A stretch of DNA of 57,091 nt, from IMG/VR virus record IMGVR_UViG_3300018915_000004, positions 1 through 57,091 of that record; one strand, given 5' to 3'. This DNA is from a virus. The notes beneath the pieces were generated by a model that was not told the origin of the DNA, ran no database searches, and saw nothing but the letters and a program-made list of their open reading frames with translations. The stretch's first letter is position 1; each line of letters opens with the position of its first letter. Below, piece by piece: positions 2,115 to 57,091 of the stretch. The position numbers and the translations under genes were made by a program.

Positions 2115-2341
2115 GTGAGTACACAGAATACATTACTAGGCAAGGCGATCGCGCCGATCTAATCGCTTTCTACTTCTACGGTAGCTTTTACAGTTATCCT
2201 CAACTCTTGCTTGATAATCCGATCCTTTTGCAAAAGCCGATTAGACCGATGTTACCCAGTGGGATTGTGCTAAAAATTGCCGTAGCAGATCCCGCGCCGC
2301 AACTGGTAGATCCGGCAATGCTGCCGCCCTGGAAAAGATAG
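2111..2341 (+). CDS. P2 gpX-like tail protein
   Basis: 76 aa with start overlapping the upstream stop (ATGA). YITRQGDRADLIAFYFYG...LP.G..L.I and a C-terminal PPW resemble gpX. Confidence 0.6.
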   Translation: MSEYTEYITRQGDRADLIAFYFYGSFYSYPQLLLDNPILLQKPIRPMLPSGIVLKIAVADPAPQLVDPAMLPPWKR

Positions 2342-2360
2342 ACCAAATTTGAGCGCTCTT
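2335..2360. promoter_or_regulatory. 26-bp quasi-palindrome copy 2
   Basis: AAGATAGACCAAATTTGAGCGCTCTT. Overlaps stop 2339-2341 and ends 4 nt before ATG 2365. Confidence 0.9.
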
Positions 2361-2364
2361 AATT

Positions 2365-3363
2365 ATGGTAAGAATACCTACTTTTACCCTTACTTGGGCG
2401 GCTAAAGATGTGACGGAGAACATCAAGCCTTATGTTCAAAGTATTGTTTATGACGATAAGATCGAAGGTCAAGAAAGTGACACTATTGAGATCACCTTAG
2501 ATAACCCGCGTTTAATTTGGGCTAATGAGTGGTTACCGGATATCGGGGATAAATTAGCTTTGACGCTTGGCTATGTAGGGGAGCCGAAGCTAGGCGTTGT
2601 TGAGTTCCAGATTGACAAGATCGTCAACCGCCCTTTGACTTGTTCCGTGAGTGGCTTGGCAACGCCTACCGATCAGACGTTGCGAGAAAAGAAAACCCAA
2701 GCGTATGAAAACACATCACTCAAGCAGATTGCGGAAGCGATCGCAAGCCGCAACAAATTAACTCTTGTGGGCAAAGTTAAGGATGTGCAGATTCAACGGG
2801 TAACACAGAATGAACAAACCGATCTTGAATTTTTGCGCCAAATCTCCAAAGATTACGGTCTAATATTCAAGGTTGAAAACACGACTAAGCTTGTATTTTA
2901 TGAGGAAAAAGATCTACAGGAGAGCGCGGCAACTTTAACCATAAAGTTTGAAGAGTTATCCAGTTTTGAGATAGAGGAAAGTCAGCAAGACACCTTTACA
3001 GGCGGCAAGCTTGCCTATCAAGATCCAACAACGGGAGATCTGATCAAGGCAGAAAAAAGCGCCAAGCCTAAGGCACCTACAAAAGCCGATAACCAAAATC
3101 AGGTTAAACAGGTAGAGAACGAGCAACAAGCAAGCTTGCAAGCTGAGGAGGCGCTTAGGCAAGCCAATCAGGGACAAATAAAAGGGCGGCTTGAATTGGA
3201 AGGAATAACCCAGCTAAGCGCCGGATCTAATTTCAACTTGGAAGGGGTAGGCAAGTACAGCGGCAAGTATCAAGCGCGATCGCTTGTCCATAATTTGAAC
3301 AGACAAGCAGGATACCGAGTGACAATAGACGTGATTAGACTTGAGCCAGTAGACAGAGGTTAG
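2365..3363 (+). CDS. P2 gpD-like late control / tail protein D
   Basis: 332 aa. ..DVTENIKPYVQSIVYDDKIEGQESDTIEITLDN..GDKLALTLGY..NEQTDLEFLRQISKDYG matches the gpD pattern, and gene order is U-X-D. Confidence 0.75.
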   Translation: MVRIPTFTLTWAAKDVTENIKPYVQSIVYDDKIEGQESDTIEITLDNPRLIWANEWLPDIGDKLALTLGYVGEPKLGVVEFQIDKIVNRPLTCSVSGLATPTDQTLREKKTQAYENTSLKQIAEAIASRNKLTLVGKVKDVQIQRVTQNEQTDLEFLRQISKDYGLIFKVENTTKLVFYEEKDLQESAATLTIKFEELSSFEIEESQQDTFTGGKLAYQDPTTGDLIKAEKSAKPKAPTKADNQNQVKQVENEQQASLQAEEALRQANQGQIKGRLELEGITQLSAGSNFNLEGVGKYSGKYQARSLVHNLNRQAGYRVTIDVIRLEPVDRG

Positions 3364-3366
3364 TAA

Positions 3367-3918: not shown

Positions 3919-4140
3919 ATGACAGAGTTTACAGTAAACCAAGTTGGACAGGGCGCGATCATCTTTCGAGTATTAAGCAGCGCGGCAGCGGCGACTATTA
4001 CCGCTCTTAGAACCGGATCAACGGCTTGGCAACAGTTCAACACCGATGCAGCAGGGACGGCAGGAACGGCGATCAATTTGACACAACCGGGCGCGGCAGG
4101 GTCAACGATTGCTAACTTTAGCTGGCGAATCGTTGCATGA
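3919..4140 (+). CDS. hypothetical small baseplate-region protein
   Basis: 73-aa Ala/Thr-rich ORF packed between the gpV-like and gpW-like genes. Confidence 0.55.
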   Translation: MTEFTVNQVGQGAIIFRVLSSAAAATITALRTGSTAWQQFNTDAAGTAGTAINLTQPGAAGSTIANFSWRIVA

Positions 4141-4523
4141 CTTATTCAACTGACGAATGGTATTTGATAGAGGAAGTTTGGAAGCAAGGACAGATCGGAG
4201 CGCCGCAAGTTGTCTCAAATTTGGGCGATCTTAAGCAATGTATTGAGACGATCTTAAAAACCTATCCAGGTCAAGACAGTCTTAGACCTTTTGGATCGCG
4301 CATCCTTGACCACATCGACTTACCCATAGACATAGCCAGACCGTTGATCATCAGGGACGCTATAGACGCGATCGCCCTGTGGGAGCCAAGAGTAAATGTC
4401 CAAAGGGTTGTGGTAGAAGGCAACGTTGCCAAGGGTGAGTTGCTTTTGACTGTCTATTGGACGGTTAAAGATAGTACTACCTCAGGAGAGGCAGCGGTTG
4501 CATTTAGGAGCGCGATAGTATGA
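4137..4523 (+). CDS. gpW/gp25-like baseplate wedge protein
   Basis: 128 aa. ..CIETILKTYPGQDSLRPFGSRILDHID..IRDAIDAIALWEPRV matches the GPW/gp25 signature. Confidence 0.8.
   Translation: MTYSTDEWYLIEEVWKQGQIGAPQVVSNLGDLKQCIETILKTYPGQDSLRPFGSRILDHIDLPIDIARPLIIRDAIDAIALWEPRVNVQRVVVEGNVAKGELLLTVYWTVKDSTTSGEAAVAFRSAIV
4207..4232. promoter_or_regulatory. 26-bp quasi-palindrome copy 3 (inside coding sequence)
   Basis: AAGTTGTCTCAAATTTGGGCGATCTT, encoding QVVSNLGDLK of the gpW-like protein. Confidence 0.8.
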
Positions 4524-7908: not shown

Positions 7909-8493
7909 ATGCCTAGGCGCTTTTTTGTAGACATAGAACCGGATAGCGATCGCGGTCAAATAGTTGGAGAGTACAGAGGGATTGATATTGATCAGTATCA
8001 AACCATTGAAGCGATCGCCGCCGCCGATGACCTAGACCCAGACGATCTAGGGCGTTTGTACTACAAGAATGGAGAAGTTCGGGTTAAGCCAGAGCTACCA
8101 ACACCAGGGCGCTTTTACTGGGACATTGACGCGGAAGATTACCGCGAGATCCTAGACGTGTCAGGAATACCACGATCAGCCAACTACTCAGGCTTAAACG
8201 CCGATCTATCCCCTAATGGGAAACTAGGGCATTTACTCATAAAAGCAATGAACACAAAAGCGTCTCCTATGTTGCAAGGGATGCTCCCTACTGCGATCGC
8301 TTTTGGCAATCTTGACGCTCTTAAGACTTGCCTTGAGGCGATCGTTGGTCAGATGCCAGCAGACAGCCGTTTTACAGTGGAGGAAATGACGGCGCTTGCT
8401 AACTCGTTTAAAGCTAATAACATCCCTGCAAAGATTGTTGTAAAAGAAAAGTTATTGACCGCCGCCGTCTCAATCCAGGTCATTCCAACTTAA
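7909..8493 (+). CDS. hypothetical protein (possible tail fibre assembly or accessory protein)
   Basis: 194-aa ORF directly after the fibre gene and last in the + strand structural block. Confidence 0.55.
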   Translation: MPRRFFVDIEPDSDRGQIVGEYRGIDIDQYQTIEAIAAADDLDPDDLGRLYYKNGEVRVKPELPTPGRFYWDIDAEDYREILDVSGIPRSANYSGLNADLSPNGKLGHLLIKAMNTKASPMLQGMLPTAIAFGNLDALKTCLEAIVGQMPADSRFTVEEMTALANSFKANNIPAKIVVKEKLLTAAVSIQVIPT

Positions 8494-8500: not shown

Positions 8501-8526
8501 AAGAGCGCCCAAATTTGAGACAACTT
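8501..8526. promoter_or_regulatory. 26-bp quasi-palindrome copy 4
   Basis: AAGAGCGCCCAAATTTGAGACAACTT, between the convergent genes ending at 8493 (+) and 8592 (-). Confidence 0.8.
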
Positions 8527-8533
8527 GGGCGCT
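8503..8533. terminator. hairpin at the convergent gene junction
   Basis: AGCGCCCAA (8503-8511) pairs with TTGGGCGCT (8525-8533). The loop contains half of motif copy 4 and the U-tract is weak. Confidence 0.4.
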
Positions 8534-9583: not shown

Positions 9584-9593
9584 AGTATAACAC
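9584..9593 (-). promoter_or_regulatory. extended -10 decamer GTGTTATACT
   Basis: Exact decamer on the - strand, 9 nt downstream of motif copy 5 and upstream of gene 9163..9522. Confidence 0.7.
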
Positions 9594-9602: not shown

Positions 9603-9628
9603 AAGATGCAACAAATTTGAGACATCTT
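9603..9628. promoter_or_regulatory. 26-bp quasi-palindrome copy 5
   Basis: AAGATGCAACAAATTTGAGACATCTT. Identical 26/26 to copy 21. Confidence 0.9.
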
Positions 9629-9671: not shown

Positions 9672-10250
9672 CTAGCGGCGGTTAGAGTAATTGGGTTCCC
9701 AGTTAAACTCATCCTCCTCATCAGCATCAGGACTAAAACCACACTGAGGACATACAAACCCATTAGGCGGCGGCAGATAACCCTTGATTTCTTCCACTGC
9801 TTCATCGTTTCTTAGCAGCAACTCATACGCCTCATCAGACTTACCCGCAAGCCATCCCACAGCCGCGATCAAGGCTTGCTCTCGACCTCTATAGTACGTT
9901 TCTCCATCAGGAGGACTAAAGGGCGCAAAATCACCGCTAGAGGCAGCAAGGCAACCGTAAGTTAGATCCCAGTATCCACTAGAGCGATCGCCCTGCCTCT
10001 CATCTCTTGGATTAGGGTCTAAAACTTCGGTAATTGCCAACTGATTAGGGAAGTGCAGATCTGAAGCTGGCAGGGCGTTCAACAGGGCGGCAACTTGCTC
10101 TAAAGGCTGTCTTGCTATCCGGTTGCTCATTATCCGCGCCTTAACCTGCTTGCTAAACTCATCCCAGGCGCTAACGCGGCGCGATCGCTCATCTGCGATC
10201 GCCTGAATCTCTCGGAAGCCTAAAACAATCTCATCATTGCTCTCATTCAT
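9672..10250 (-). CDS. hypothetical protein
   Basis: 192-aa ATG ORF with a C-terminal CPQCG motif. Confidence 0.6.
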   Translation of the reverse strand: MNESNDEIVLGFREIQAIADERSRRVSAWDEFSKQVKARIMSNRIARQPLEQVAALLNALPASDLHFPNQLAITEVLDPNPRDERQGDRSSGYWDLTYGCLAASSGDFAPFSPPDGETYYRGREQALIAAVGWLAGKSDEAYELLLRNDEAVEEIKGYLPPPNGFVCPQCGFSPDADEEDEFNWEPNYSNRR

Positions 10251-11086: not shown

Positions 11087-11112
11087 TCGTTAGACCAAAT
11101 TTGAGACATCAT
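11087..11112. promoter_or_regulatory. 26-bp quasi-palindrome copy 6
   Basis: TCGTTAGACCAAATTTGAGACATCAT, 1 nt after the endolysin stop codon and abutting a 13-bp-stem hairpin. Confidence 0.85.
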
Positions 11113-12339: not shown

Positions 12340-12365
12340 AAGATCGCTCAAATTTGGTCTATCTT
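12340..12365. promoter_or_regulatory. 26-bp quasi-palindrome copy 7
   Basis: AAGATCGCTCAAATTTGGTCTATCTT. Identical 26/26 to copy 31. Lies between the -10 decamer and ATG 12335. Confidence 0.9.
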
Positions 12366-12370: not shown

Positions 12371-12380
12371 AGTATAACAC
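12371..12380 (-). promoter_or_regulatory. extended -10 decamer GTGTTATACT
   Basis: Exact decamer on the - strand, 5 nt upstream of motif copy 7. The predicted TSS falls at the motif edge. Confidence 0.65.
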
Positions 12381-12846: not shown

Positions 12847-12872
12847 AAGTTGTCTCAAATTCAATACATCTT
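12847..12872. promoter_or_regulatory. 26-bp quasi-palindrome copy 8 (degenerate core)
   Basis: AAGTTGTCTCAAATTCAATACATCTT, 4 nt from ATG 12842. Confidence 0.65.
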
Positions 12873-12882
12873 AGTGTAGCAC
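12873..12882 (-). promoter_or_regulatory. -10 decamer variant GTGCTACACT
   Basis: 8/10 match to the decamer, directly abutting motif copy 8 on the - strand. Confidence 0.45.
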
Positions 12883-14020: not shown

Positions 14021-14046
14021 TTGATAGCTCAAATTTGAGACATCAT
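14021..14046. promoter_or_regulatory. 26-bp quasi-palindrome copy 9
   Basis: TTGATAGCTCAAATTTGAGACATCAT. Encodes the last residues (..MMSQI*) of the ParB-domain protein. Confidence 0.85.
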
Positions 14047-16133: not shown

Positions 16134-16143
16134 AGTATAACAC
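16134..16143 (-). promoter_or_regulatory. extended -10 decamer GTGTTATACT
   Basis: Exact decamer on the - strand, 39 nt upstream of ATG 16095. Overlaps the edge of motif copy 10. Confidence 0.7.
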
Positions 16144-16181: not shown

Positions 16182-16207
16182 AAGATGTCTCAAATTTAGC
16201 CTATCTT
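16182..16207. promoter_or_regulatory. 26-bp quasi-palindrome copy 11
   Basis: AAGATGTCTCAAATTTAGCCTATCTT. Overlaps the helicase stop at 16196. Together with copy 10 it forms GAGACATCTT-N14-AAGATGTCTC. Confidence 0.75.
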
Positions 16208-18255: not shown

Positions 18256-18281
18256 AAGATGTCCCAAATTTGGGCGATCAT
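18256..18281. promoter_or_regulatory. 26-bp quasi-palindrome copy 12
   Basis: AAGATGTCCCAAATTTGGGCGATCAT. Overlaps stop 18278-18280. Confidence 0.85.
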
Positions 18282-19075
18282 CTTGGTGTTTCCTGCTCCT
18301 GTGATCGCTCTAGTTGTTGAACGTTCCGAGCAATTGAGGCGCTTAACTCAATCATGCCAACAAGCACCCAGATCCCAACAATTGCAGAAATTAGAATCTG
18401 AAACTTCCAGGGGATTTGTGGTAGCTTAATCCCTGCATTATTCCAGAAGTCACCCACCTTTGCCGCCGCGCTTTTTAGCCTAGCGCCTCTTGCAGGGCGA
18501 TCGCCGCCGCCCTTGCCGCCTTTATCTTCCCTGTCATCCTTGCCGCTCCTGCTGTCTTTATCGCCTCCCTTGGGCGGTATCCAGGTCTGATCCTCATTCA
18601 GGTAGCAGATGCCAACGCCGTTGTGATCCGCCAAGTTGGCAGCATTGCGCCCACCCCAGTAGATCTTGTCACTCCAAGGCGCAAGTCCGATCAGGATCGG
18701 CTGATGAATTGCGCCTAAAAGCTGAGTGTATGACCGTGCCTGGTTGGTTCCCATAATCACGCCGTTTCGGTCTAAAAGCTTTTTAACCTCTAAAACCTGC
18801 TGTGGCTTGCCGTCCTTATAAATGACAATATCCGCCTCAGCATTGCCGCCCTTGGGTAGCTGTATAGGGACGTTTTCTTTAACTGTATAGCCTGACTCTC
18901 TTAGCTTTTTGGCGATCAGTCTTTGAAGATCCAACTCTTTCCAGTCTTTAGGTAGTTTTGCTCTTTTTACCCACTCTCGCGGATCAATTCCAAGGCGGCT
19001 GCTTGAGTATTCATCTTTGGCACGGCGCTTGGTGATTTCTGCCGCTCTAGCTTGCCGAAGTTTAACCCGCTTCAT
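18278..19075 (-). CDS. PD-(D/E)xK-type nuclease-like protein with a C-terminal transmembrane helix
   Basis: ..LIAKKLRESGYTV...NAEADIVIYKDGKPQQVLEVKK resembles the HsdR-N/restriction-fold D...E.K motif. Hydrophobic ILISAIVGIWVLVGMI near the C-terminus. Confidence 0.45.
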   Translation of the reverse strand: MKRVKLRQARAAEITKRRAKDEYSSSRLGIDPREWVKRAKLPKDWKELDLQRLIAKKLRESGYTVKENVPIQLPKGGNAEADIVIYKDGKPQQVLEVKKLLDRNGVIMGTNQARSYTQLLGAIHQPILIGLAPWSDKIYWGGRNAANLADHNGVGICYLNEDQTWIPPKGGDKDSRSGKDDREDKGGKGGGDRPARGARLKSAAAKVGDFWNNAGIKLPQIPWKFQILISAIVGIWVLVGMIELSASIARNVQQLERSQEQETPR

Positions 19076-19445: not shown

Positions 19446-19455
19446 GGTATAACAC
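19446..19455 (-). promoter_or_regulatory. -10 decamer variant GTGTTATACC
   Basis: 9/10 match, 14 nt downstream of motif copy 13. Confidence 0.6.
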
Positions 19456-19469: not shown

Positions 19470-19495
19470 ATGATGTCTCAAATTTGGTCTAACTT
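19470..19495. promoter_or_regulatory. 26-bp quasi-palindrome copy 13
   Basis: ATGATGTCTCAAATTTGGTCTAACTT. Overlaps stop 19494-19496. Confidence 0.85.
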
Positions 19496-21929: not shown

Positions 21930-21955
21930 AAGATAGCCCAAATTTGAGCGCTCTT
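21930..21955. promoter_or_regulatory. 26-bp quasi-palindrome copy 14
   Basis: AAGATAGCCCAAATTTGAGCGCTCTT. Confidence 0.9.
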
Positions 21956-23162: not shown

Positions 23163-23188
23163 GAGATAGACCAAATTTGAGCTATCAT
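23163..23188. promoter_or_regulatory. 26-bp quasi-palindrome copy 15
   Basis: GAGATAGACCAAATTTGAGCTATCAT. Overlaps stop 23185-23187. Confidence 0.85.
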
Positions 23189-25985: not shown

Positions 25986-26011
25986 AAGATAGCTCAAATT
26001 TGAGACATCTT
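25986..26011. promoter_or_regulatory. 26-bp quasi-palindrome copy 16
   Basis: AAGATAGCTCAAATTTGAGACATCTT. Overlaps stop 25994-25996. On the - strand it is followed 1 nt later by TATAAG. Confidence 0.9.
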
Positions 26012-27462: not shown

Positions 27463-27488
27463 AAGATCGCCCAAATTTGAGCTATCTT
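27463..27488. promoter_or_regulatory. 26-bp quasi-palindrome copy 17
   Basis: AAGATCGCCCAAATTTGAGCTATCTT. Overlaps stop 27487-27489. Confidence 0.9.
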
Positions 27489-28391: not shown

Positions 28392-28417
28392 AAGATAGCT
28401 CAAATTTGGGAGATCAT
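28392..28417. promoter_or_regulatory. 26-bp quasi-palindrome copy 18 (in a divergent promoter region)
   Basis: AAGATAGCTCAAATTTGGGAGATCAT, between the divergent genes 27487..28350 (-) and 28523..28810 (+). Confidence 0.85.
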
Positions 28418-28889: not shown

Positions 28890-30387
28890 ATGCAGGTTTA
28901 GAGCGCTGTTGTTGCCTCATCTCTTCAAGCTGTTTTTTGAAATCTTCAGGCATAGGCGATCGCTCAACTGTACCCTTAGCCTGATTATTGCCTGAATCAG
29001 GGCTAGGCGCTCCCTGGACAGGCGAGGCAGTGTTTTGTGAGCAATCCACCACGGAGGCACTAGAGGCGGCTTGCTGCTGCTGTAATTTGCGGAAGCGATC
29101 CGCGTCCGTTTGGGCGGCTATCTCGTGATCCACCTGTGAGCCGCCGCCTTTTTTGTTCGCCCTTGCGATCGCTGCTTGCTTGAACTTCTCAGGGTTGCTC
29201 ATAAACTCTTGCCATTCATCAACGCTTAGACACAGGGATTGCCATTTTGTTGGATCTTTCTCGTAACTCCTGATCGTGTCTGCTGCTTTTTTGGTTGCTT
29301 GCTCATCGTTCCAATAGCGCCAAGCAAAAAACTTAAGGAAGCCACGATCAAGATCGTTGCAATGTTGCCCAAGGATTCTACGGGTTTTAGTCCTGTAAAG
29401 GTAGATACGATCGCACATCACGCGATCCGCAAGTGCTTGCAATTCCTCTTGGGTATATGTTCCCAGGTTGTCACCATTGCCGTATGCCTCCTCTAACTCA
29501 TCTATCCTCTGTTGCCCTACCAGGAACCGAGGCGCTTTAGTATTGTTATCACGCGCTGCCTCGGAACCTTGATCTAATGAATCAATAAGGCTGTTACAGA
29601 CAGTGTAAGTATTGTTATCAAGATCGCCCAAATTTGGGACGGCTTGAGAATTGCGATCGCTTGCTTCCGGTTGCTCCAACTCCAAAACTTCTACTTCAAC
29701 GGATTGGCTTTGTGTGTGTGTGTCTGACTCCTGCGCGCGCGCGTTAGTCTCACTCAAATGATCTAATTTAATTTGATCTTTTTTTGTTTCTTCTATATAG
29801 ATGAACGTGCCATTTTGTGTACCTTCGATAGTGCCATTTTGTGTACCTTCGATAGTGCCATTTTGTGTACCTTCGATAGTGCCATTTTGTGTACCTTCGG
29901 ATTTTTCCGATAGTGCCAATTCTGGTACTATCGGATTTTGCGTTGTTTCAGCCATTACAGCCTCTAAAATCAACTTTCCAATAGTCTCAGGATTGGGTCT
30001 GTAAAATTTTGTTCGATTCCAGCTTTTTACTACACATTGTGCTGAAATGACATAATTCGATTTTTCTAAGTCAAGCAATAAGCGTTGCAGCGATCGCTTG
30101 CTTCCGAGCGCTGGGTAAATTTGCGCCCACTGTTCGTACGTTGCTGCTGTCCACCATTCGCCATCCTGAAAATAATGTGTTTTGCCATGCAATGCGTTGT
30201 ATTGGCACCAGTCTTCTATGACCTCTACAAACAGAGCTTGATTAATCCCTATCTTGTTTGCGACCTGCCAGATTAACTTTGTGTACTTGAGTCGATGCAA
30301 TGTCTTGTACGCCGCGATCGCTGATGCTGTTGAAATAGTGTCTTGCGATGCTGACGTATTACGTGTTATACTTTTTCTCAATTCCAT
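28888..30387 (-). CDS. replication initiator-like protein (N-terminal HTH) containing in-frame iteron repeats
   Basis: N-terminus ..IGINQALFVEVIEDWCQYN...DGEWWTAATYEQWAQIYPALGSKRSLQRLLLDLEKSNYV resembles DnaD/replisome-organiser type HTH domains. EGTQNGTI occurs four times. Confidence 0.5.
   Translation of the reverse strand: MELRKSITRNTSASQDTISTASAIAAYKTLHRLKYTKLIWQVANKIGINQALFVEVIEDWCQYNALHGKTHYFQDGEWWTAATYEQWAQIYPALGSKRSLQRLLLDLEKSNYVISAQCVVKSWNRTKFYRPNPETIGKLILEAVMAETTQNPIVPELALSEKSEGTQNGTIEGTQNGTIEGTQNGTIEGTQNGTFIYIEETKKDQIKLDHLSETNARAQESDTHTQSQSVEVEVLELEQPEASDRNSQAVPNLGDLDNNTYTVCNSLIDSLDQGSEAARDNNTKAPRFLVGQQRIDELEEAYGNGDNLGTYTQEELQALADRVMCDRIYLYRTKTRRILGQHCNDLDRGFLKFFAWRYWNDEQATKKAADTIRSYEKDPTKWQSLCLSVDEWQEFMSNPEKFKQAAIARANKKGGGSQVDHEIAAQTDADRFRKLQQQQAASSASVVDCSQNTASPVQGAPSPDSGNNQAKGTVERSPMPEDFKKQLEEMRQQQRSKPA
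29620..29645. promoter_or_regulatory. 26-bp quasi-palindrome copy 19 (inside rep coding sequence)
   Basis: AAGATCGCCCAAATTTGGGACGGCTT, encoding AVPNLGDLD. On the - strand TACACT lies 12 nt downstream. Confidence 0.75.
29807..29930. repeat. four 24-bp direct repeats plus a degenerate fifth copy: candidate iterons / origin
   Basis: GTGCCATTTTGTGTACCTTCGATA at 29807, 29831, 29855 and 29879 (last copy diverges at its end). Flanked by an AT-rich tract at 29757-29800, (TG)6 at 29711-29723 and (GC)5 at 29733-29743. Confidence 0.75.
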
Positions 30388-31291: not shown

Positions 31292-31792
31292 ATGCAACAG
31301 CAATTGCTACTACCCAGCGAGACAGACCGATCGCGCCGCGCCAAGGAATACTTGAGATCCAAGCTTGTGTATCCCTTTGAGATCTTGAGGATTGAGCGCC
31401 GCGCTGCAACAATCACGCATCCCATCTACAAAAGGGCGGTGATTAGCTTGGTAGGTGAGAAAGAGTATCACGAGCAACGCGAGGCAAGATCGCTCAAATT
31501 TGAGACATCATTGACGCTCAAGGAATTGCCGGATACTGAAGAGTTTAAGGATGCGATCGCCTATTTTTGGGCGTGTTGTGCAAATGAGATTGATCTCCCT
31601 GAAATGTTGACACTAGAGCAAGAGTTAAGGGAGATACGCGATCGCTTTCGTGTCTACTGGTCTTTGTATGAGTGCAACTGGCAACAATGCCTCTTGTTGT
31701 TGCAGGACTATCCCGACGAATTATGCTTAGAGAATATCAACCGAGCCAAGCAGGAGTTAAAGCGCCGTGATAGAGCTAAAACAATTGCCTGA
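31292..31792 (+). CDS. hypothetical protein
   Basis: 166-aa ATG ORF, 2 nt after the upstream stop. Confidence 0.65.
   Translation: MQQQLLLPSETDRSRRAKEYLRSKLVYPFEILRIERRAATITHPIYKRAVISLVGEKEYHEQREARSLKFETSLTLKELPDTEEFKDAIAYFWACCANEIDLPEMLTLEQELREIRDRFRVYWSLYECNWQQCLLLLQDYPDELCLENINRAKQELKRRDRAKTIA
31486..31511. promoter_or_regulatory. 26-bp quasi-palindrome copy 20 (inside coding sequence)
   Basis: AAGATCGCTCAAATTTGAGACATCAT, encoding ARSLKFETSL. On the - strand GTGATACT follows after ~14 nt, so an antisense promoter is possible. Confidence 0.75.
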
Positions 31793-33253: not shown

Positions 33254-33741
33254 TCGGGTTGCTCCTGTTGCTTTTGCTTCTCTTTAGATAGTATCGTACT
33301 TTCTCCTAAAGATGCAACAAATTTGAGACATCTTTCCTCTACCTCTTTTTGTTCCAGCGCTGATTGATATCTGGCAGTTAGTAAACGTTGCTGTAACTCT
33401 AGCCGCGCTGCTTCTTTTTCTTGGTTAATCCTGATGATTTCCAGATCTGCCGCTATCTTCTGCTTAATGTAAAAATCGTACTGCCAGAGCAAGAAGCGGA
33501 TTTTCCGCCGTGGGTGTTGGATAGCATCAAGTAATCGAGTATTAAAACGCCAGATTGCCAGATTGACTCTACCCATAGGCGATCGCCAGAATTCTTTTAC
33601 ATCTTTGCAATTGGTTGCTTGGATCTGTGTCTTGCCTGGATGTGTTTCTATCCAAGCTTTGAGCGATCTTTCCTCATCTAATTGCCCAGACCATGTTAGA
33701 GCGTCGATCAGTCTCCATTTAGTTTGTACATTCTGATCCAT
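33250..33741 (-). CDS. hypothetical protein
   Basis: 163-aa ATG ORF. Contains motif copy 21 near its 3' end. Confidence 0.6.
   Translation of the reverse strand: MDQNVQTKWRLIDALTWSGQLDEERSLKAWIETHPGKTQIQATNCKDVKEFWRSPMGRVNLAIWRFNTRLLDAIQHPRRKIRFLLWQYDFYIKQKIAADLEIIRINQEKEAARLELQQRLLTARYQSALEQKEVEERCLKFVASLGESTILSKEKQKQQEQPE
33290..33299 (-). promoter_or_regulatory. -10-like GTACGATACT
   Basis: The GATACT hexamer lies 13 nt downstream of motif copy 21 and 36 nt upstream of ATG 33253. Confidence 0.5.
33309..33334. promoter_or_regulatory. 26-bp quasi-palindrome copy 21 (inside coding sequence)
   Basis: AAGATGCAACAAATTTGAGACATCTT. Identical to copy 5. Encodes RCLKFVASL. Confidence 0.85.
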
Positions 33742-34909: not shown

Positions 34910-34935
34910 GAGATGTCTCAAATTTGAGCTATCTT
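34910..34935. promoter_or_regulatory. 26-bp quasi-palindrome copy 22
   Basis: GAGATGTCTCAAATTTGAGCTATCTT, followed after 10 nt by GTATCATACT. Confidence 0.9.
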
Positions 34936-34988: not shown

Positions 34989-34993
34989 TAGAG

Positions 34994-35019
34994 AAGACGT
35001 ATCAAACTTGAGACATCAT
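34994..35019. promoter_or_regulatory. 26-bp quasi-palindrome copy 23 (degenerate)
   Basis: AAGACGTATCAAACTTGAGACATCAT. Its last two bases are the AT of ATG 35018. Confidence 0.65.
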
Positions 35020-37302: not shown

Positions 37303-37342
37303 ATGATGTCTCAAATTTGGGCGATCATTCTTGAGACATCTT
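37303..37342. promoter_or_regulatory. 26-bp quasi-palindrome copy 24 plus an extra half-site
   Basis: ATGATGTCTCAAATTTGGGCGATCAT (37303-37328) followed by TCTTGAGACATCTT. Confidence 0.85.
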
Positions 37343-37349: not shown

Positions 37350-37359
37350 GTGTGATACT
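37350..37359 (+). promoter_or_regulatory. -10 decamer variant GTGTGATACT
   Basis: 9/10 match, 7 nt after the extra half-site and 30 nt upstream of ATG 37390. Confidence 0.6.
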
Positions 37360-38409: not shown

Positions 38410-38435
38410 AAGAACGCTCAAATTTGGGACAACAA
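38410..38435. promoter_or_regulatory. 26-bp quasi-palindrome copy 25 (one arm degenerate)
   Basis: AAGAACGCTCAAATTTGGGACAACAA, after a T7 run and 27 nt upstream of ATG 38463. Confidence 0.7.
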
Positions 38436-40478: not shown

Positions 40479-40504
40479 AAGATAGACCAAATTTGAGCTA
40501 TCTT
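40479..40504. promoter_or_regulatory. 26-bp quasi-palindrome copy 26
   Basis: AAGATAGACCAAATTTGAGCTATCTT, 2 nt after stop 40476. Confidence 0.9.
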
Positions 40505-40513: not shown

Positions 40514-40523
40514 GTGTTATATT
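40514..40523 (+). promoter_or_regulatory. -10 decamer variant GTGTTATATT
   Basis: 9/10 match, 9 nt downstream of motif copy 26. Confidence 0.65.
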
Positions 40524-41347: not shown

Positions 41348-41373
41348 AAGATGTCTCAAGTTTGTTGCATCTT
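41348..41373. promoter_or_regulatory. 26-bp quasi-palindrome copy 27
   Basis: AAGATGTCTCAAGTTTGTTGCATCTT. This is the reverse complement of copies 5 and 21 with one core change. Confidence 0.85.
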
Positions 41374-41384: not shown

Positions 41385-41394
41385 GTATTACACT
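41385..41394 (+). promoter_or_regulatory. -10 decamer variant GTATTACACT
   Basis: 8/10 match, 11 nt after motif copy 27 and 25 nt upstream of ATG 41420. Confidence 0.55.
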
Positions 41395-41865: not shown

Positions 41866-41891
41866 ATGATGTCTCAAGTTTGAGCGATCAT
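41866..41891. promoter_or_regulatory. 26-bp quasi-palindrome copy 28
   Basis: ATGATGTCTCAAGTTTGAGCGATCAT. TATGTA lies 11 nt downstream. Sits at the head of the packaging/structural operon. Confidence 0.85.
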
Positions 41892-44065: not shown

Positions 44066-44299
44066 ATGACAGATAAAACGATTCAAGATTTTGTTGATTT
44101 TGTGAATCGGGAATGTATTGGCAAAGTCATTCAAAAAGCTTACACTCTCCCTAATTTTGTCCCTGCTGTAAAAATTGAGTTTAATGACGGATCATCTGTC
44201 GAAATTTTCGGGGAACATGATGAAGGCTTTTGTATTGACTGGGCAGAAGAAACCACAACAGCAGATAACAATCATTTAGATGTCTCAAATTTGAGCTAA
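44066..44299 (+). CDS. hypothetical protein
   Basis: 77 aa from ATG 44066. The C-terminus ..DVSNLS* is encoded by motif copy 29. Confidence 0.5.
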   Translation: MTDKTIQDFVDFVNRECIGKVIQKAYTLPNFVPAVKIEFNDGSSVEIFGEHDEGFCIDWAEETTTADNNHLDVSNLS

Positions 44300-44302
44300 C
44301 TT
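44277..44302. promoter_or_regulatory. 26-bp quasi-palindrome copy 29
   Basis: TAGATGTCTCAAATTTGAGCTAACTT. Ends 4 nt before the portal ATG 44307. Confidence 0.85.
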
Positions 44303-46743: not shown

Positions 46744-46769
46744 AAGATAGCCCAAATTTGAGACATCAA
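46744..46769. promoter_or_regulatory. 26-bp quasi-palindrome copy 30
   Basis: AAGATAGCCCAAATTTGAGACATCAA. Starts 1 nt after the HNH stop and ends 4 nt before ATG 46774. Confidence 0.85.
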
Positions 46770-47643: not shown

Positions 47644-47672
47644 AGTATAACACTTATTAGGTTGAGAGTCAA
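47644..47672 (-). promoter_or_regulatory. strong sigma70-type promoter: TTGACT - 17 nt - (GTGT)TATACT
   Basis: Exact decamer at 47644-47653 on the - strand and a -35 TTGACT at 47667-47672. It points away from all neighbouring genes. Confidence 0.7.
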
Positions 47673-49821: not shown

Positions 49822-50207
49822 CAATGATTAACTCTGAACAGGCGATCGCTTTTATCCGCGCAATTCCTGCCGTTGCCGTTGTTTACAACAGTAACCATGA
49901 TCCGTTTATTCATAGTCTACTAGAGGCAACCAAGGGACAATTGCCCGTTGAGGAGGGCAAGCCACATCAATATTATTACCGTGTGTGGTTCGCCGCTTAC
50001 AGGTATTTACAACAATCTCCTGAACTCTTCCGAGTCAAAAAGCATGATCGGACGGAATTAGGTAGTTATGAATCTCCTCTCACGATGCTTTTGGAGCAAC
50101 AGGCGGCAGAGGATAGGCGGCTAGGGTTGCTCATCCCCGTAGGTCAATCAACGCTTGCACCAGTAGATCACTACACTGTCTCAATCAGGACAACAACCGA
50201 ATTTTAA
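49818..50207 (+). CDS. hypothetical head-tail region protein
   Basis: 129 aa with start overlapping the upstream stop. Confidence 0.6.
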   Translation: MTMINSEQAIAFIRAIPAVAVVYNSNHDPFIHSLLEATKGQLPVEEGKPHQYYYRVWFAAYRYLQQSPELFRVKKHDRTELGSYESPLTMLLEQQAAEDRRLGLLIPVGQSTLAPVDHYTVSIRTTTEF

Positions 50208-50231
50208 GATCGCTCAAATTTGGTCTATCTT
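50206..50231. promoter_or_regulatory. 26-bp quasi-palindrome copy 31
   Basis: AAGATCGCTCAAATTTGGTCTATCTT. Identical to copy 7. Overlaps stop 50205-50207 and ends 3 nt before ATG 50235. Confidence 0.9.
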
Positions 50232-53393: not shown

Positions 53394-53909
53394 ATGACTC
53401 AGATAATCAGAAATCTGAATACTAGCGTAATTTGGATCGCTGGGACGGACTTTCAAGGACTCGTTAAGGATGTCGAGCTTCCAGAGCTAGAAAGCGAAAT
53501 AGACGACGATGGGAGATCAGGCTTAGTAGGTATTAGCCCAAGCTTTGTAGGGATACAAAAGCCTGAGGCAACATTTACCTTTGCGTCTTGGTCAATCCGT
53601 TGGGCGCATGAATTCACAGACCTAACCAAATTAATCTATGTAACATTTCGGGGCGCTCTAGCTGATTCCCGCGATGCTACAAATGTACAACCCTATGTTG
53701 TGACAGTGGCAGGATTGAGCATGAAAGCGCCTATGGGCGGCGCGTCTCCTCAAGAAAATACAGAATGGGAGTGTGGTTTGCACGTAACTGCCATCCGGCA
53801 AACAGTTGATGGTACGGAAATACTTAATTACAACGCTGAAACCAACGAATATAGTGTACTTGGAAAAGATATCCTGAAGAGTACACGCCAAGCGCTAGGA
53901 CTTGTTTAG
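53394..53909 (+). CDS. tail tube protein
   Basis: 171 aa. ..NLNTSVIWIAGTDFQGLVKDVELPELESE..D.....G resembles major tail tube proteins. Follows the sheath gene. Confidence 0.75.
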   Translation: MTQIIRNLNTSVIWIAGTDFQGLVKDVELPELESEIDDDGRSGLVGISPSFVGIQKPEATFTFASWSIRWAHEFTDLTKLIYVTFRGALADSRDATNVQPYVVTVAGLSMKAPMGGASPQENTEWECGLHVTAIRQTVDGTEILNYNAETNEYSVLGKDILKSTRQALGLV

Positions 53910-54453
53910 TATGACTAAGACCGTAAAACTGAAAGGAGACAGGATCGCAGAAGTCAAACCATTGACAGCGAGAGATTTTTTTGAATTCAACGAACAAGCG
54001 CAAAAATTAGGGGCATCGGCGGCTAGCTTAGGTCTGTTTTTGAAGGCGGTCACAGTAAACGGTGAACCCGTCACACCCGAAAATATTAATCAGCTTCTAA
54101 GGTTTCGCGATCGCCTTAAGGTTGATGCTTTTGTTTTTAAGGTGGACGGTGAACCGAAGATCAACGACGGCGCGGATCAGTTTTTTGACTCGGAAGATTT
54201 CACCCTGCCAGACGGCAGACGGATCGAGGTGCTTGATCCTGATGGGTCACTGTATGATTCTTATGTTGCAACTCAAGGCAAGAGTTACAGCAAAGCGCTC
54301 GCCCTTGCATTTAAAGGGTTGTTTACGATTGACGGTAAGCCGTTGGACGATCAAGCGCTAGACACTCTTTACCCTGAGGGACTAGGCTTTGAGGCGGCGG
54401 CGCTTTTACTCCCCTACTTAGTGAGTTTTTTTCAACCCTCCCAAGCCCCCTAG
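53902..54453 (+). CDS. tail assembly chaperone (P2 gpE / lambda gpG analogue)
   Basis: 183 aa, between the tube and tape measure genes. Carries a slippery heptamer near its 3' end. Confidence 0.7.
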   Translation: MFSMTKTVKLKGDRIAEVKPLTARDFFEFNEQAQKLGASAASLGLFLKAVTVNGEPVTPENINQLLRFRDRLKVDAFVFKVDGEPKINDGADQFFDSEDFTLPDGRRIEVLDPDGSLYDSYVATQGKSYSKALALAFKGLFTIDGKPLDDQALDTLYPEGLGFEAAALLLPYLVSFFQPSQAP

Positions 54454-54602
54454 ACCTGATCGCCCTTTGTAAAGTAACGGGTTGGAGTTTAAGCGATTTT
54501 GAAAAAAAAAGCTTTTCTTCAATCCGTTTTTGGTTGAAACAAGCAATTGAGTATCAACGCTTGGAGGTAAAAGCAACAAAAGAAGCAAGCAAGGGCAAGT
54601 AA
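53902..54602 (+). CDS. predicted -1 frameshift extension of the tail chaperone (gpE+E' / gpGT analogue)
   Basis: Slippery T TTT TTT at 54426-54432 in the zero frame. The -1 frame stays open for 56 more codons (..WSLSDFEKKSFSSIRFWLKQAIEYQRLEVKA..) to TAA 54600-54602. Confidence 0.6.
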
Positions 54603-54604
54603 AA

Positions 54605-54630
54605 GTGATGTCCCAAATTTGAGCTATCTT
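54605..54630. promoter_or_regulatory. 26-bp quasi-palindrome copy 32
   Basis: GTGATGTCCCAAATTTGAGCTATCTT. Ends 5 nt before the tape measure ATG 54636. Confidence 0.85.
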
Positions 54631-54635
54631 AATCT

Positions 54636-57091
54636 ATGGCTGTTGATGTAAGAATTCAGGTACAGTTACAGGATTTGACCGCCGCCGGATTTCAGGCAAT
54701 GGCGGCAAACTCCCGCGCCGCTTTTAACTCAATGCAAGGCGGTATTGCAAGGATGCAAGGGGCATCAGGGAGAATAACCGCAACAGGACAGGATCTTGCC
54801 CAAACAGGGTTGATGATTGCCGCGCCTATTGTTGGCGTTGGTGTTGCAGCGGCGCGGGAGGCGATCGCCGTTGAGTCAGCTATGGCAGATGTTAACAAGG
54901 TTTTGGGGCGATCTGAGTCGCAAATGGCAGGAGTAGAGCAAGGGATTATAAACCTATCAACCCGTGCCAAGGATGCTCTGCCCCTGCCTGTTGTCGGCTT
55001 GGCTGATATTGCGGCGGCAGGTGGATCGCTTGGGATTTCCGCCAAGGAGATTTTAGGGTTTACAGAAGTTACGGCAAAAATGGCGACCGCTTTTGACATG
55101 ACTGCTGAGCAAGCAGGAAGCGCGATCGCAAATATGCGGAACGTCTACAGCCTTGATTCTAAAGGCGGTGTAACTGAGGTCACTCAATTAGGGGATACGG
55201 TCAACACGCTTAGCAACAACATGGCGGCGCGAGCGGGTGACATCGTTGAGGCGATGACCAGGATCGGCGGTACTACTCGCAACTTTGGATTAGCCAAGGA
55301 ACAATCAGCCGCGCTTGCTGCTTCAATGATTGCGCTGGGTAACGCGCCTGAATTGGCGGCAACAGCCATTAACAATATTTTGCCAGCGCTTCAAGGCGCT
55401 ACAGGTCAAACCAAGCGCTTTAAAGAGGGTTTGGCAATGGCAGGTATTAGCGCCGAGGGTATGTCCTCAATGGTTCGGAAAGACGGCGTAGCTGCAATTA
55501 ATACTCTACTCATTTCCCTTAACAAGCTAGAGCCACAGTCAAGGACGCTAGCCATACAAAAAATGTTCGGCGCGGGTATTGATGCTCGTGTACTGGCAAC
55601 GCTAAGCAACGACGCTGGACAGTTTGCCAGAGCGCTAGGACTTGTTAGCGATCGTGGCAAGATGGCAGGGTCAATGCAGCGAGAATTCGAGATCCGGGCA
55701 GCGACAACTGGCAACAGCCTGATCATCATGAAAAACAACCTAACGGCAATGGCGATCACGTTAGGCAAGATACTTCTACCGACGATTAATCAGCTAGTAA
55801 GAATTATCAATCCTATCCTTTCAGGAATAGCGGCATTTGCTGAAGCTAACCCAGGCTTAACACGCTTGATTGTCACTGGGCTAGCTGTAACAGCCGCTTT
55901 TGGTGGGTTGCTCGTGATTGCTGGCAGTTTGGTGTTTTTTGCAGGGCAAGCCATTGGAGCAATCGCAGGTATCGCGGGCGCAATTGGTTTTGTTGCTACA
56001 GCCGCGACAGGTGGAACGGTTGCGGTTGGCGGTTTGGTTGCCTCAACAGGGGTAGGAGCGGCGGCGGTTGCTGGCGGCGCTGGTGTTGCTTTTTCCGCTC
56101 TGGCAGCGGTTGCTCTCCCTCTTGGCGTGTTGGCGTTGGGCGCTTTCTTGTTAATCAGGAATTGGCGCAAAATTCCCGCCTTTTTCTCTGGGCTATGGTC
56201 TGCGATCGCAAATAGTAGTAAGGCGCTGTGGGCTGGCTTAATTTTAGGATGGCGAACTGTTACAAGCGAGATTGCCAGATCAAGAAATGTTGTTGTTTTT
56301 GATACTGAAACAGCAACAGGACAAACCAAGCAATTTAGGCAAGGTCTGGCAATGGCAGGTATCAGCGCCGATCAAATGTCCTCAATGGTTCAAAAGGACG
56401 GCGTAGGCGCGATTGATCGCTTGATTGATTCTCTTGATGACTTGGATCAAGCGTCTCGCAGAGTAGCAATAAAAAAGATCTTTTTTTCTGGCAATGATAC
56501 TCAAGCCGTCTCATCGCTAGGAAGTAGCGCGGCTCATCTTTCTACAGCGTTTAAATCAGTTGGCGATCAAGGAAAAGTTGCCGGATCAGTGCAACAAAAA
56601 TTTGCTATCAGTGCATCAACAACAGCGATCGCAACCGCAAGACTAGAGAGCAATCTCGCGTCAATCTCTCTTATTCTGTCAAAAGGTATAATTCCTGCAC
56701 TCAATCAACTGGTAGCAATGATTGATCCGGCTGCTGCTAAGTTGTCAGCATTTGCCGAAGCTAACCCAGAGGTAACAAAACTAGCTATAGGCGCTTTAGC
56801 TGCTGTCGGCGCTTTTGGTAGCTTGTTTGTTATTGCTGATAAAGTTGCTTCTCGCGTTGCGGGAATGTTTGCGCCCATTGAACCCGCTAAGGCAGCAATT
56901 GACAAAGCAACAGCCTCAGCATCAAAGGGCGCTGTGTCGGCTGCTAAGTTCGCCTACCAGGGCGCTGAGGCGTTTGTTTCCATAGGGTTGATTACTACCG
57001 CCCTGGCTGCTGTAGCGGGTGCTACGCTGCCTATATCTGCAATCGTCGGCTTGGCTGTAGGCGCTTGGTTGGTGGTCAAGAATTGGCGGCA
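54636..57091 (+). CDS. tail tape measure protein, N-terminal part (runs off the window end and continues at base 128)
   Basis: Hand-translated from ATG 54636 with no stop through 57091 (MAVDVRIQVQLQDL...AMADVNKVLG...). Absent from the ORF track because it has no stop inside the window. The - strand ORFs across this span are shadows. Confidence 0.85.
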   Translation, partial: MAVDVRIQVQLQDLTAAGFQAMAANSRAAFNSMQGGIARMQGASGRITATGQDLAQTGLMIAAPIVGVGVAAAREAIAVESAMADVNKVLGRSESQMAGVEQGIINLSTRAKDALPLPVVGLADIAAAGGSLGISAKEILGFTEVTAKMATAFDMTAEQAGSAIANMRNVYSLDSKGGVTEVTQLGDTVNTLSNNMAARAGDIVEAMTRIGGTTRNFGLAKEQSAALAASMIALGNAPELAATAINNILPALQGATGQTKRFKEGLAMAGISAEGMSSMVRKDGVAAINTLLISLNKLEPQSRTLAIQKMFGAGIDARVLATLSNDAGQFARALGLVSDRGKMAGSMQREFEIRAATTGNSLIIMKNNLTAMAITLGKILLPTINQLVRIINPILSGIAAFAEANPGLTRLIVTGLAVTAAFGGLLVIAGSLVFFAGQAIGAIAGIAGAIGFVATAATGGTVAVGGLVASTGVGAAAVAGGAGVAFSALAAVALPLGVLALGAFLLIRNWRKIPAFFSGLWSAIANSSKALWAGLILGWRTVTSEIARSRNVVVFDTETATGQTKQFRQGLAMAGISADQMSSMVQKDGVGAIDRLIDSLDDLDQASRRVAIKKIFFSGNDTQAVSSLGSSAAHLSTAFKSVGDQGKVAGSVQQKFAISASTTAIATARLESNLASISLILSKGIIPALNQLVAMIDPAAAKLSAFAEANPEVTKLAIGALAAVGAFGSLFVIADKVASRVAGMFAPIEPAKAAIDKATASASKGAVSAAKFAYQGAEAFVSIGLITTALAAVAGATLPISAIVGLAVGAWLVVKNWR
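56965..57091. repeat. terminal overlap, identical to 1-127
   Basis: See feature 1-127. Confidence 0.9.

Follow-up and report, generated by a model that had tools for sequence, protein, structure and literature searches.

Cluster K mycobacteriophages carry many copies of the start-associated sequence (SAS) and the extended SAS (ESAS), which are typically located 3-7 nt before start codons and sometimes hold the stop codon of the upstream gene (PMC3203893; PMC12699233). The SAS is an asymmetric 13-bp sequence with an AGGAG core that occurs in a single orientation and at non-structural genes only; the ESAS is formed by imperfect inverted repeats with 17-bp arms, a variable spacer of 4-13 bp and a subcluster-specific consensus, and in K4 phages the last base of its right repeat can coincide with the start codon (PMC3203893; PMC12699233). 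The function of the ESAS is still untested; the departures between its arms do not support RNA pairing, and the authors favor a DNA-binding protein (PMC3203893; PMC12699233). In Cluster A phages such as L5 and Bxb1, more than 20 sites for one regulator, the stoperators, are located at promoters and in short intergenic spaces, and are proposed to act on both the initiation and the elongation of transcription (PMC9283540; PMC6550527). Stoperators are asymmetric 13-bp sites, bound by a monomer and oriented to match transcription, whose consensus co-evolves with the regulator, the immunity repressor of these temperate phages (PMC9283540; PMC6550527). Here, we describe a 26-bp dyad-symmetric motif that is repeated 31 times in a stretch of viral DNA of 57,091 nucleotides (IMG/VR record IMGVR_UViG_3300018915_000004, positions 1 to 57,091; hereafter, the window) and that, on balance, probably serves throughout the genome as the operator of a dimeric DNA-binding regulator encoded by the phage.

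Further systems bear on such a motif. The T4 RegA protein is a single factor that acts on many translation initiation regions, its sites being unstructured, asymmetric RNA overlapping the AUG. The P1 C1 operators and the conserved inverted repeats of phiC31 comprise approximately 17-18 or more scattered operators, some of them at promoters, in two temperate phages. Among T4-like phages, the promoter early stem-loops (PeSLs) combine a palindrome with a sigma-70-type promoter and are repeated at gene boundaries, where they coincide with indel junctions (PMC2839356; PMC4122927). The stem-loop of the PeSL has been read as a terminator, and the repeats are found in hyperplastic regions (PMC2839356; PMC4122927).

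Definition and placement of the motif

The core CAAATTTGAG occurs 50 times in the window within one mismatch, compared with 7.4 occurrences expected, and alignment of the flanks gave the 26-bp dyad AAGAT-N4-CAAATTTG-N4-ATCTT, frequently extended by TT/AA. A weight-matrix scan yielded exactly 31 full copies with scores of 26.6-41.4 (Table 1); the next-best score, that of an orphan half-site, was 11.1, and the maximum in shuffled sequence was 14.7. The geometry of the dyad is fixed at 13 + 13 bp with both arms conserved, and the N4 blocks belong to a few types (GTCT, AGCT, CGCY, AGAC and GCAA). Counted relative to transcription, the GATGTCTC-type half is on the 5′ side in 13 copies and on the 3′ side in 8. 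An iteron or origin cluster was dropped as a candidate because orphan half-sites number only about four in the window.

Although 91% of the genome is coding, 24 of the 31 copies are mostly non-coding (P ~5e-20), and approximately one third of gene boundaries carry the motif. Four copies are intragenic, namely those at 4207 (gp25/W), 29620 (initiator gene), 31486 and 33309. Among 24 co-directional copies, 15 abut or overlap the upstream stop codon, compared with 7.5-10.5 expected (P = 1e-4 to 0.02), which is a stronger signal than the adjacency to start codons described below. Stop codons are present within the motif in several frames, and upstream genes often terminate inside it.

Association with an extended -10 block

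The sequence GTGTTATACT has the form of an extended -10 element (TGnTATACT) and is present in seven exact copies (9584, 12371, 16134, 28446, 30363, 30823 and 47644), compared with approximately 0.1 expected, and in several more copies with one mismatch. The motif is combined with blocks of this kind in three geometries. In the first, approximately 10 copies (9603, 19470, 27463, 29620, 33309, 34910, 40479, 41348 and, via an extra half-site, 37303) are located 9-14 nt upstream of the -10 10-mer on its transcribed side, which places the motif centre near -38.5 if the hexamer is taken at -12 to -7; the copy at 28392 faces predicted promoters in both directions. In the second, a gap of 1-3 nt separates the hexamer from the motif, whose centre thus falls near -27.5, about one helical turn closer, as at the orphan half-site at 16142 and possibly at copy 25986. 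In the third, the -10 block is upstream of the motif, at 12340-12365 (GTGTTATACT, 5 nt away) and at 12847-12872 (GTGCTACACT, abutting), so that two copies are positioned across the predicted transcription start.

The first of these associations is far beyond expectation. At least seven motif flanks contain GTGTTATACT with up to two mismatches at a distance of 6-16 nt, compared with 0.27 expected (P ~2e-8), and among 93 copies pooled from eight stretches of sequence, i.e., the window plus seven loci, 14 flanks have a strict TGnTAnnnT hexamer beginning 12-14 nt beyond the end of the motif, compared with approximately 0.5 expected. At the methylase-proximal genes, four lineages share the third arrangement, [extended -10]-(0-8 nt)-[motif]-(2-6 nt)-ATG. 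On the other side, five promoters with the same block (12371, 28446, 30363, 30823 and 47644) have no overlapping motif, so that the GTGTTATACT block probably suffices as a promoter. The copies internal to the late operon (44277, 46744, 50206, 54605, 1637, 2335 and 4207) have no -10 element nearby. The TTGAGA arm of the motif was rejected as a true -35 element, as its spacer to the -10 element would be 19-20 nt.

Two arrangements of these blocks are recorded as side observations. The GTGTTATACT copy at 47644 is antisense and lies in the 266 nt that separate the scaffold gene from the head gene following it. The copies at 34910-35019 flank the face-to-face blocks GTATCATACT (34946, plus strand) and GTGCCATACT (34976, minus strand), whose predicted transcription starts cross; this arrangement looks like a switch between a leftward and a rightward operon.

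Pairing and folding of the arms

When the 31 copies were oriented by transcription, the arms paired in 71.2% of cells, compared with 75.0 ± 1.6% when the arms were shuffled, and the covariation score was 0.093, below 498 of 500 shuffles (0.143). In no copy do the two halves have the same N4 block, against 4.6 identical pairs expected (P = 0.003). Mismatches on the sense strand are balanced (22 G.U and 16 A.C), flipped versions of the site are equally frequent on that strand, and folding energy does not differ between sense and antisense. The motif hairpins, which are always mismatched and comprise at most 13 pairs, are weakest in the start-adjacent copies, whose transcription is certain (mean -1.7 kcal/mol, compared with -6.4 kcal/mol in the promoter class; P = 0.002); the weaker folding of start-adjacent copies is also found in the pool with the relatives (P = 0.002), and the same trend is visible in L130, a distant relative. 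At copies of the 12847 type, the -10 element abuts the motif in three lineages, and the predicted RNA would lack approximately the first six motif bases. An RNA hairpin was thus rejected as the identity of the motif, with covariation, folding energy and strand symmetry all against it.

The features of an intrinsic terminator are likewise absent: the hairpins have energies of 0 to -9 kcal/mol and an A/T-rich centre, and no T-run follows. Canonical terminators composed of a hairpin and a T-run sit separately beside the copies at 14021, 38410 and 11087, and the identity of the motif as a terminator was rejected on both grounds. No Rfam family matching the motif was found. Taken together, the results argue against a structured RNA element, and they fit a putative recognition of duplex DNA by a dimer combined with selection against self-complementarity beside the AUG.

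Copies adjacent to start codons

An earlier note on this DNA, made by a model from the sequence, had drawn attention to eight copies that end 3-5 nt before a start codon or overlap it, and had suggested that they may act at the RNA level, as a translational operator, a translational enhancer or a processing site. The coordinates, linkers and ATGs of all eight are correct, with motif ends -2 to +5 nt from the ATG. Across the copies, the distance to the following start codon takes the values -2, 3, 4 (five times) and 5 nt, then 14 nt, then at least 25 nt, with none of 6-13 nt. If the copies are placed uniformly within their own spacers, however, 4.3-6.7 start-adjacent copies are expected against the 8 observed (P = 0.03-0.30), and four of the eight occupy spacers that consist of little beyond the motif. 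Given these short spacers, start adjacency within this genome is barely above chance. The genes concerned do lack a Shine-Dalgarno sequence, as had been pointed out, but this is not distinctive, since a clear one is present in only approximately 42% of the other genes. As for the extended consensus proposed for this subset, the exact 12-mer ATCTTAATTATG occurs once, three copies are one base off and two copies are two bases off, and one of the three one-base variants adjoins no motif.

The earlier note had also placed a -10-like element just upstream of three copies. This is borne out at 12340 and 12847, where the motif plus 4 nt make up the whole leader and the predicted transcripts begin at or inside the motif, in agreement with the proposal that the motif is the 5′ leader; at 34994 the element is weak (TATTAG), and the credible promoter near that copy is GTATCATACT at 34946-34955. 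For RNA-level function itself no positive support emerged, and the results on arm pairing, folding and orientation count against a structured RNA element. Neither does the RegA system offer a close precedent, as one copy overlaps an ATG, 23 of the 31 are away from starts, and Pfam and PHROG scans gave no match to the RegA family, although a protein may conceivably bind the unstructured RNA in the manner of RegA. The label "annealing protein" for 35018-36097 finds no support in Pfam or PHROG. The sequence TATGGT after start-adjacent copies was considered as a hidden -10 element and rejected: the base before the ATG is T or C, there is no consistent TA, and transcription would begin intragenically.

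Relatives of the window

Relatives were found by searches with the portal and the 704-aa protein, and comprise contigs at 36-81% amino-acid identity. The motif centre, which is AAATTT in the window, is AAATCT or AGATTT in L126 and L129, A[A/G]AT[T/C]T together with a new half-type, GACCTCTC, in L123 and L127, and AAGCTT in L125 and L128; in L131 the arms are AAGTT...AACTT. The marine TARA contig L130 (36% portal identity) carries an unrelated palindrome of 24-26 bp, CCGTTACTAAAATATTTTAGTAACGG, in 9 copies in 21 kb. The positions of the L130 palindromes are nevertheless the same in kind (e.g., 1654-1671, 4168-4185, 7975-7992 and 9975-9992), and those adjacent to starts have mismatched arms, whereas the others are near-perfect.

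Orthologous copies follow the helicase gene and the 704-aa gene, and others precede both genes downstream of the methylase, the portal, scaffold and 136-aa genes, and the gene that comes after the tube. Before these six genes the relatives have linkers of 0-6 nt; start adjacency is found again at the orthologs in four or more related lineages, in which the motif sequence has drifted. For the scaffold protein, the tblastn alignment with L125 starts at the ATG directly following the motif. The placement architecture is therefore conserved, while the motif sequence shifts in concert across the copies of a genome. An orientation rule suggested by L126, in which six of six centres point one way, is contradicted by L129, which is mixed, and by L123, which has both centre orientations on one strand.

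At 28393, 44306 and 46746, three of approximately six internal breakpoints, homology with close relatives ends no more than 4 nt from the edge of a motif; as about one third of boundaries carry the motif, breakpoints at motif edges are not beyond chance. Extra genes are bracketed by motif copies in three genomes: an HNH gene in the window, a PAPS reductase gene in L125 (8596-10000) and four open reading frames (ORFs) in L130 (7975-9992). In L123, a related 59-kb phage contig, an IS200/IS605 element (Y1 transposase and OrfB/TnpB) is inserted at 582-2386.

Other searches for relatives were negative: a portal-profile scan of metagenome contigs gave no match, and a degenerate-motif scan of genome contigs gave single chance matches only. 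A perfect palindrome, cTGAGATAACACAAATTTGTGTTATCTCAG, recurs in many metagenome-assembled genomes of Actinomycetota (loci including L090, L096, L104 and L113-L117) and looks like an unrelated operator matched by chance through the degenerate pattern.

A possible mechanism and its alternatives

We somewhat favor the explanation that the 31 copies form a genome-wide operator array, in which the 26-bp dyad would be a duplex-DNA operator and its ligand a dimer of a single sequence-specific regulator, most probably a phage product. Approximately 10 operators would cover the -35 region of extended -10 promoters, a few would lie one helical turn closer, and two would lie across the transcription start. 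Since the -10 block also occurs without the motif, promoter activity probably does not depend on the latter, and an operator at -27 or over the start site would be well placed to occlude RNA polymerase. On these grounds, a regulator that represses or modulates timing is more likely than an obligate activator. Within operons, the copies may serve as roadblocks, as proposed for stoperators, or may merely be bound without further function. The start-adjacent copies would be operators that fill the entire gap from the upstream stop codon or the -10 element to the next ATG; because a Shine-Dalgarno sequence is often dispensed with in this genome, nothing else would be needed in such a spacer. Where the operator is transcribed beside a start codon, its arms may be kept poorly complementary, leaving the initiation region unstructured. 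This explanation is supported by the conservation of the arms, with N4 blocks that vary independently and without compensation, and by the intragenic copy at 29620, which is identical in L132 at 26 of 26 positions between flanks of 87% identity. Further support comes from the clear gap in score between the 31 copies and the background, their non-coding placement, the free orientation of the site, the geometries relative to the -10 block, the concerted sequence change at orthologous positions, and the low self-complementarity of the transcribed start-adjacent copies.

Several points weigh against the operator array. All promoter calls are predictions from sequence, and a generic sigma-70 scan was uninformative (22 sites compared with 21.9 expected). 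No clear motif-binding protein emerged from Pfam and PHROG scans of approximately 70 proteins, and the same scans gave no integrase or repressor family, which leaves an immunity-type role unsupported. A purely DNA-level role does not itself predict conserved linkers of 0-6 nt, nor does it account for the placement of the copy toward the start codon in the few spacers with room to spare (e.g., L123 8993, L123 18589 and L125 21070). The avoidance of identical halves is not required for binding of a dimer, and a centre at -38.5 would suit an activator too.

The best lead for the regulator, and a weak candidate, is the 95-aa product of 28523-28810, with a possible helix-turn-helix. Its matches to Pfam HTH_23 (E = 0.0099) and to the closest PDB sequence, of the XRE family (E = 0.33), are both weak, and an AlphaFold2 model (predicted local distance difference test score, pLDDT, 66) has no significant fold match. 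Its gene is a lone plus-strand gene beside the copy at 28392-28417, and both the gene and this operator are conserved in L132. Sequence searches of the PDB with five small proteins were negative or marginal.

Alternatively, the motif may act in RNA, where a phage protein or the ribosome would bind it as a translational operator or enhancer, perhaps alongside a role in DNA. Orthologous genes retain linkers of -2 to 6 nt despite the drift of the motif, the motif makes up the 5′ leader in the two cases of 12340 and 12847, no Shine-Dalgarno sequence precedes the start-adjacent genes, and in L123 and L125 the start-side arm has GAGG or GGAGG at a Shine-Dalgarno-compatible distance from the ATG. We nevertheless consider this unlikely, because the arms pair less than shuffled arms and show no hairpin covariation, the start-adjacent copies are the least foldable and have no sense-strand bias, copy orientation is independent of transcription, and the predicted transcription start truncates the motif where the -10 element abuts it. 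Moreover, most copies are away from starts, with approximately 10 upstream of the transcription start and four intragenic, absence of a Shine-Dalgarno sequence is common in this genome, and start adjacency in the window is near chance once spacer length is considered. It is tempting to speculate that one element works at two levels, as a duplex operator in general and additionally as a translational control site in about one quarter of the copies, with the regulator or the ribosome reading the leader or intercistronic spacer of genes without a Shine-Dalgarno sequence (e.g., portal, scaffold and tape measure); this also seems improbable to us. If it were true, transcriptional and translational timing would be coupled via one repeated sequence, in an arrangement conserved across an uncultivated cyanophage family despite complete sequence turnover. 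The dyad may also be a core promoter element, the -35 or upstream part read by RNA polymerase, e.g., through a phage sigma-like or appropriating factor, with the copies that lack a -10 element representing relics or weak internal promoters. The fixed spacing of 12-14 nt to the extended -10, the likeness of the inner arm (TTGAGA or TTGACA) to a -35 element and the presence of the motif at 14 of approximately 20 predicted promoters (count from the promoter alignment) are in line with this proposal, which is doubtful in view of the motif-free contexts of the same block (12371, 30363, 30823 and 47644), the distance of 19-20 nt from TTGAGA to the -10 element, and the late-operon copies without any -10 element; copies located 1-3 nt from, or downstream of, the -10 element fit no single geometry, and a site contacted by the polymerase would not be expected to have dyad symmetry.

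Two explanations appear very unlikely to us. According to one, the motif is a 3′-end element of RNA, an intercistronic hairpin serving as a terminator, a 3′ stabilizer or an RNase site, like the RNase III sites of T7. The excess of copies at upstream stop codons (15 of 24) is what this would predict, and the copies at 8501 and 21930 are embedded in terminator-like hairpins, but no T-run follows the motif, the hairpins are weak and always mismatched, the arms anti-covary without an Rfam match, and the separate canonical terminators lie beside copies 14021, 38410 and 11087. The other would make the motif a recombination or mobility element, either a junction of cassette exchange like the PeSLs or a small mobile palindrome like the repetitive extragenic palindromes (REPs), to which the three homology breaks within 4 nt of motif edges, the bracketed extra genes in L125 and L130, and the HNH genes and IS200/605 element of the group could be attributed. 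However, copy positions are orthologous across 49-81% amino-acid divergence and the copies have thus not moved recently, breakpoints coincide with gene boundaries in any case, of which about one third have the motif, no target-site duplications were seen, and the fixed spacing to the -10 element would be left unexplained.

The virus and its genes

The window ends have a 127-bp direct overlap in common (1-127 and 56965-57091), indicating a complete circular assembly of 56,964 bp, and the tape-measure ORF (54636 to 1637, ~1321 aa) continues in frame over the end of the window. The window is identical to an ENA metagenome contig over 21.5 kb, and L121 is 100% identical to the window, so that strain comparison yielded no information; no near-identical or related DNA was found among deposited phages and IMG/VR contigs. 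The genome is of the myovirus type. It encodes a large terminase with tblastn matches to annotated phage terminases, portal, scaffold-like, sheath, tube and tape-measure proteins, gpU, tail X, a gpD-like hub, gp25/W and baseplate J. Helicases, a C5-methylase, an M15 endolysin and a replication initiator of the DnaD-like kind are encoded as well. The Phage_GPD match of the gpD-like gene (E 6.6e-6) is under the Pfam cut-off, the Pfam match of the scaffold-like gene is weak, and approximately 90% of the proteins of the virus had no family match in the Pfam and PHROG scans. Rfam and tRNA scans of the window gave no matches. The late operon extends from 41938 across the window end to 8493. The cyanobacterial octamer HIP1 (GCGATCGC) is abundant in the genome, and the replication initiator has cellular homologs in Nostoc; the virus is probably a cyanophage.

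Some details of annotation deserve mention. The GTG start listed for the 704-aa ORF (16143) overlaps a GTGTTATACT promoter block, and its real start is probably ATG 16095 (688 aa). A 69-codon open frame at 54400-54603 stops 2 nt before the copy at 54605 and is probably a -1 frameshift extension of the tail chaperone (53902-54453). Downstream of the copy at 25986, a region of 390 nt (25604-25993) contains a HIP1-type hairpin and no ORF of at least 50 aa.

Table 1. Motif copies in the window, with the orphan half-site, the motif-free -10 blocks and the candidate binding protein
Feature	Positions	Strand	Context
Copy 1	1637..1662		Overlaps tape-measure stop by 1 nt; 14 nt before gpU ATG 1677, with a GAGG Shine-Dalgarno between
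Copy 2	2335..2360		Start-adjacent; tail-X TAG stop inside left arm; AATT, then gpD-like ATG 2365
Copy 3	4207..4232		High-scoring; in frame inside gp25/W baseplate gene 4137-4523
Copy 4	8501..8526		Junction of convergent operons; embedded in terminator-like hairpin 8504-8533
Copy 5	9603..9628		Promoter class; 9 nt upstream of GTGTTATACT (9584-9593, minus)
Copy 6	11087..11112		Between convergent endolysin (+) and helicase-C (-); separate G+C-rich hairpin adjoins
Copy 7	12340..12365	-	Start-adjacent; GTGTTATACT (12371-12380) 5 nt upstream; AATT, then ATG 12335
Copy 8	12847..12872	-	Degenerate, start-adjacent; GTGCTACACT (12873-12882) abuts; AATC, then ATG 12842
Copy 9	14021..14046		Overlaps stop of 704-aa gene by 18 nt; canonical hairpin and T-run follow
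Orphan half-site AAGATGTCTCAAA	16142..16167	-	-10 TATACT 2 nt past site end (GTGTTATACT, 16134-16143)
Copy 10	16182..16207		Overlaps helicase stop by 12 nt
Copy 11	18256..18281		Overlaps stop of gene 18278-19075
Copy 12	19470..19495		Overlaps stop of 621-aa gene; GTGTTATACC 14 nt downstream (19446-19455, minus)
Copy 13	21930..21955		4 nt after stop of ORF 21960-22124; GAGCGC half-site within larger hairpin
Copy 14	23163..23188		Overlaps stop of gene 23185-23415
Copy 15	25986..26011		Overlaps stop of gene 25994-26311; TATAAG 1 nt downstream, minus strand
Copy 16	27463..27488		Promoter class; overlaps upstream stop; GTGTTACACT 9 nt downstream (27444-27453, minus)
Copy 17	28392..28417		Divergent control region between gene 27487-28350 (-) and candidate helix-turn-helix gene 28523-28810 (+); conserved in L132
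-10 block GTGTTATACT	28446-28455	+	No nearby motif
Candidate motif-binding protein	28523-28810	+	95 aa; possible helix-turn-helix, residues 12-55
Copy 18	29620..29645		High-scoring; in frame inside replication-initiator gene; identity in L132 given in text
-10 block GTGTTATACT	30363-30372	+	No nearby motif
-10 block GTGTTATACT	30823-30832	+	No nearby motif
Copy 19	31486..31511		Intragenic, ORF 31292-31792
Copy 20	33309..33334		Promoter class; GTACGATACT 9 nt downstream, minus strand
Copy 21	34910..34935		Promoter class; GTATCATACT 10 nt downstream (34946-34955, plus)
Copy 22	34994..35019	+	Start-adjacent; last 2 nt are AT of ATG 35018; on minus strand, 8 nt upstream of GTGCCATACT (34976-34985)
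Copy 23	37303..37328		1 nt after stop; then extra half-site 37331-37342, then GTGTGATACT (37350-37359)
Copy 24	38410..38435		Canonical terminator precedes; 27 nt before ATG 38463
Copy 25	40479..40504		Promoter class; 2 nt after stop; GTGTTATATT (40514-40523) 9 nt downstream
Copy 26	41348..41373		Promoter class; GTATTACACT (41385-41394) 11 nt downstream
Copy 27	41866..41891		Upstream of small-terminase gene, head of late operon; TAGTAT 8 nt downstream
Copy 28	44277..44302	+	Start-adjacent; AATT, then portal ATG 44307; position also occupied in L123 and L125
Copy 29	46744..46769	+	Start-adjacent; 1 nt after HNH gene stop; AATT, then scaffold ATG 46774; position also occupied in L126, L123 and L125
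-10 block GTGTTATACT	47644-47653	-	No nearby motif
Copy 30	50206..50231	+	Start-adjacent; overlaps stop by 2 nt; CTC, then ATG 50235; linker of L126 ortholog 0 nt
Copy 31	54605..54630	+	Start-adjacent; AATCT, then tape-measure ATG 54636

Implications and comparison with known systems

If the operator reading is true, the motif and the -10 block would provide a near-complete regulatory map for a lineage of uncultivated cyanophages in which hardly any gene can be annotated; the map would comprise approximately 20 promoters and 31 operator sites, combined in three geometries. Genome-wide operator arrays, known mainly from actinobacteriophages, would then extend to cyanobacterial myoviruses, and such arrays would hold their position while their sequence and the specificity of the regulator drift. 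In metagenomic contigs, the motif and the GTGTTATACT block could be used as markers of gene starts, operon boundaries and lineage or "immunity" groups. A repeat that abuts a start codon need not be an RNA signal, since an operator can occupy the whole leader in a packed genome poor in Shine-Dalgarno sequences.

Among the known systems, the T4 RegA operators differ in that the motif of the window has dyad symmetry, a link to promoters and copies away from starts. The P1 C1 and phiC31 repeats are alike in being scattered operators, and differ in sequence, length and phage group. With the PeSLs the motif has in common the composite of palindrome and promoter at gene boundaries, as approximately 10 copies are paired with an extended -10, and possibly the coincidence with indel junctions; it differs from them by its poor hairpin, the missing T-run, the fixed distance to the -10 element and the 21 copies without a promoter.

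The closest analogues are the ESAS/SAS repeats of Cluster K, followed by the stoperators of Cluster A. Like the ESAS, the motif is an imperfect inverted repeat that occurs next to starts, with a lineage-specific consensus and departures unfit for RNA pairing; unlike the ESAS, it has a fixed geometry of 13 + 13 bp and is not coupled to an SAS. In contrast to the SAS, it is symmetric and has no AGGAG core (only GAG, 11 nt upstream), and 8 of the 31 copies occupy the start-adjacent position. It further differs from both in its presence in early as well as structural regions, in the linkage of most copies to promoters or stop codons, and in its host and phage group. The resemblance to stoperators lies in the number and placement of the copies, 24 of the 31 being mostly non-coding, 15 at stops and 8 at starts, and would extend to a consensus that changes along with its regulator and to effects on transcription at both initiation and elongation; by contrast, the site is a 26-bp dyad with free orientation (13 compared with 8), and no lysogeny genes were found among the approximately 70 proteins scanned. 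As asymmetry, orientation dependence, a Shine-Dalgarno core and a variable spacer are all foreign to the motif, it is an analogue rather than a member of either family, and it is best filed as a dyad-symmetric variant of genome-wide phage operator arrays in a previously unstudied cyanophage group.

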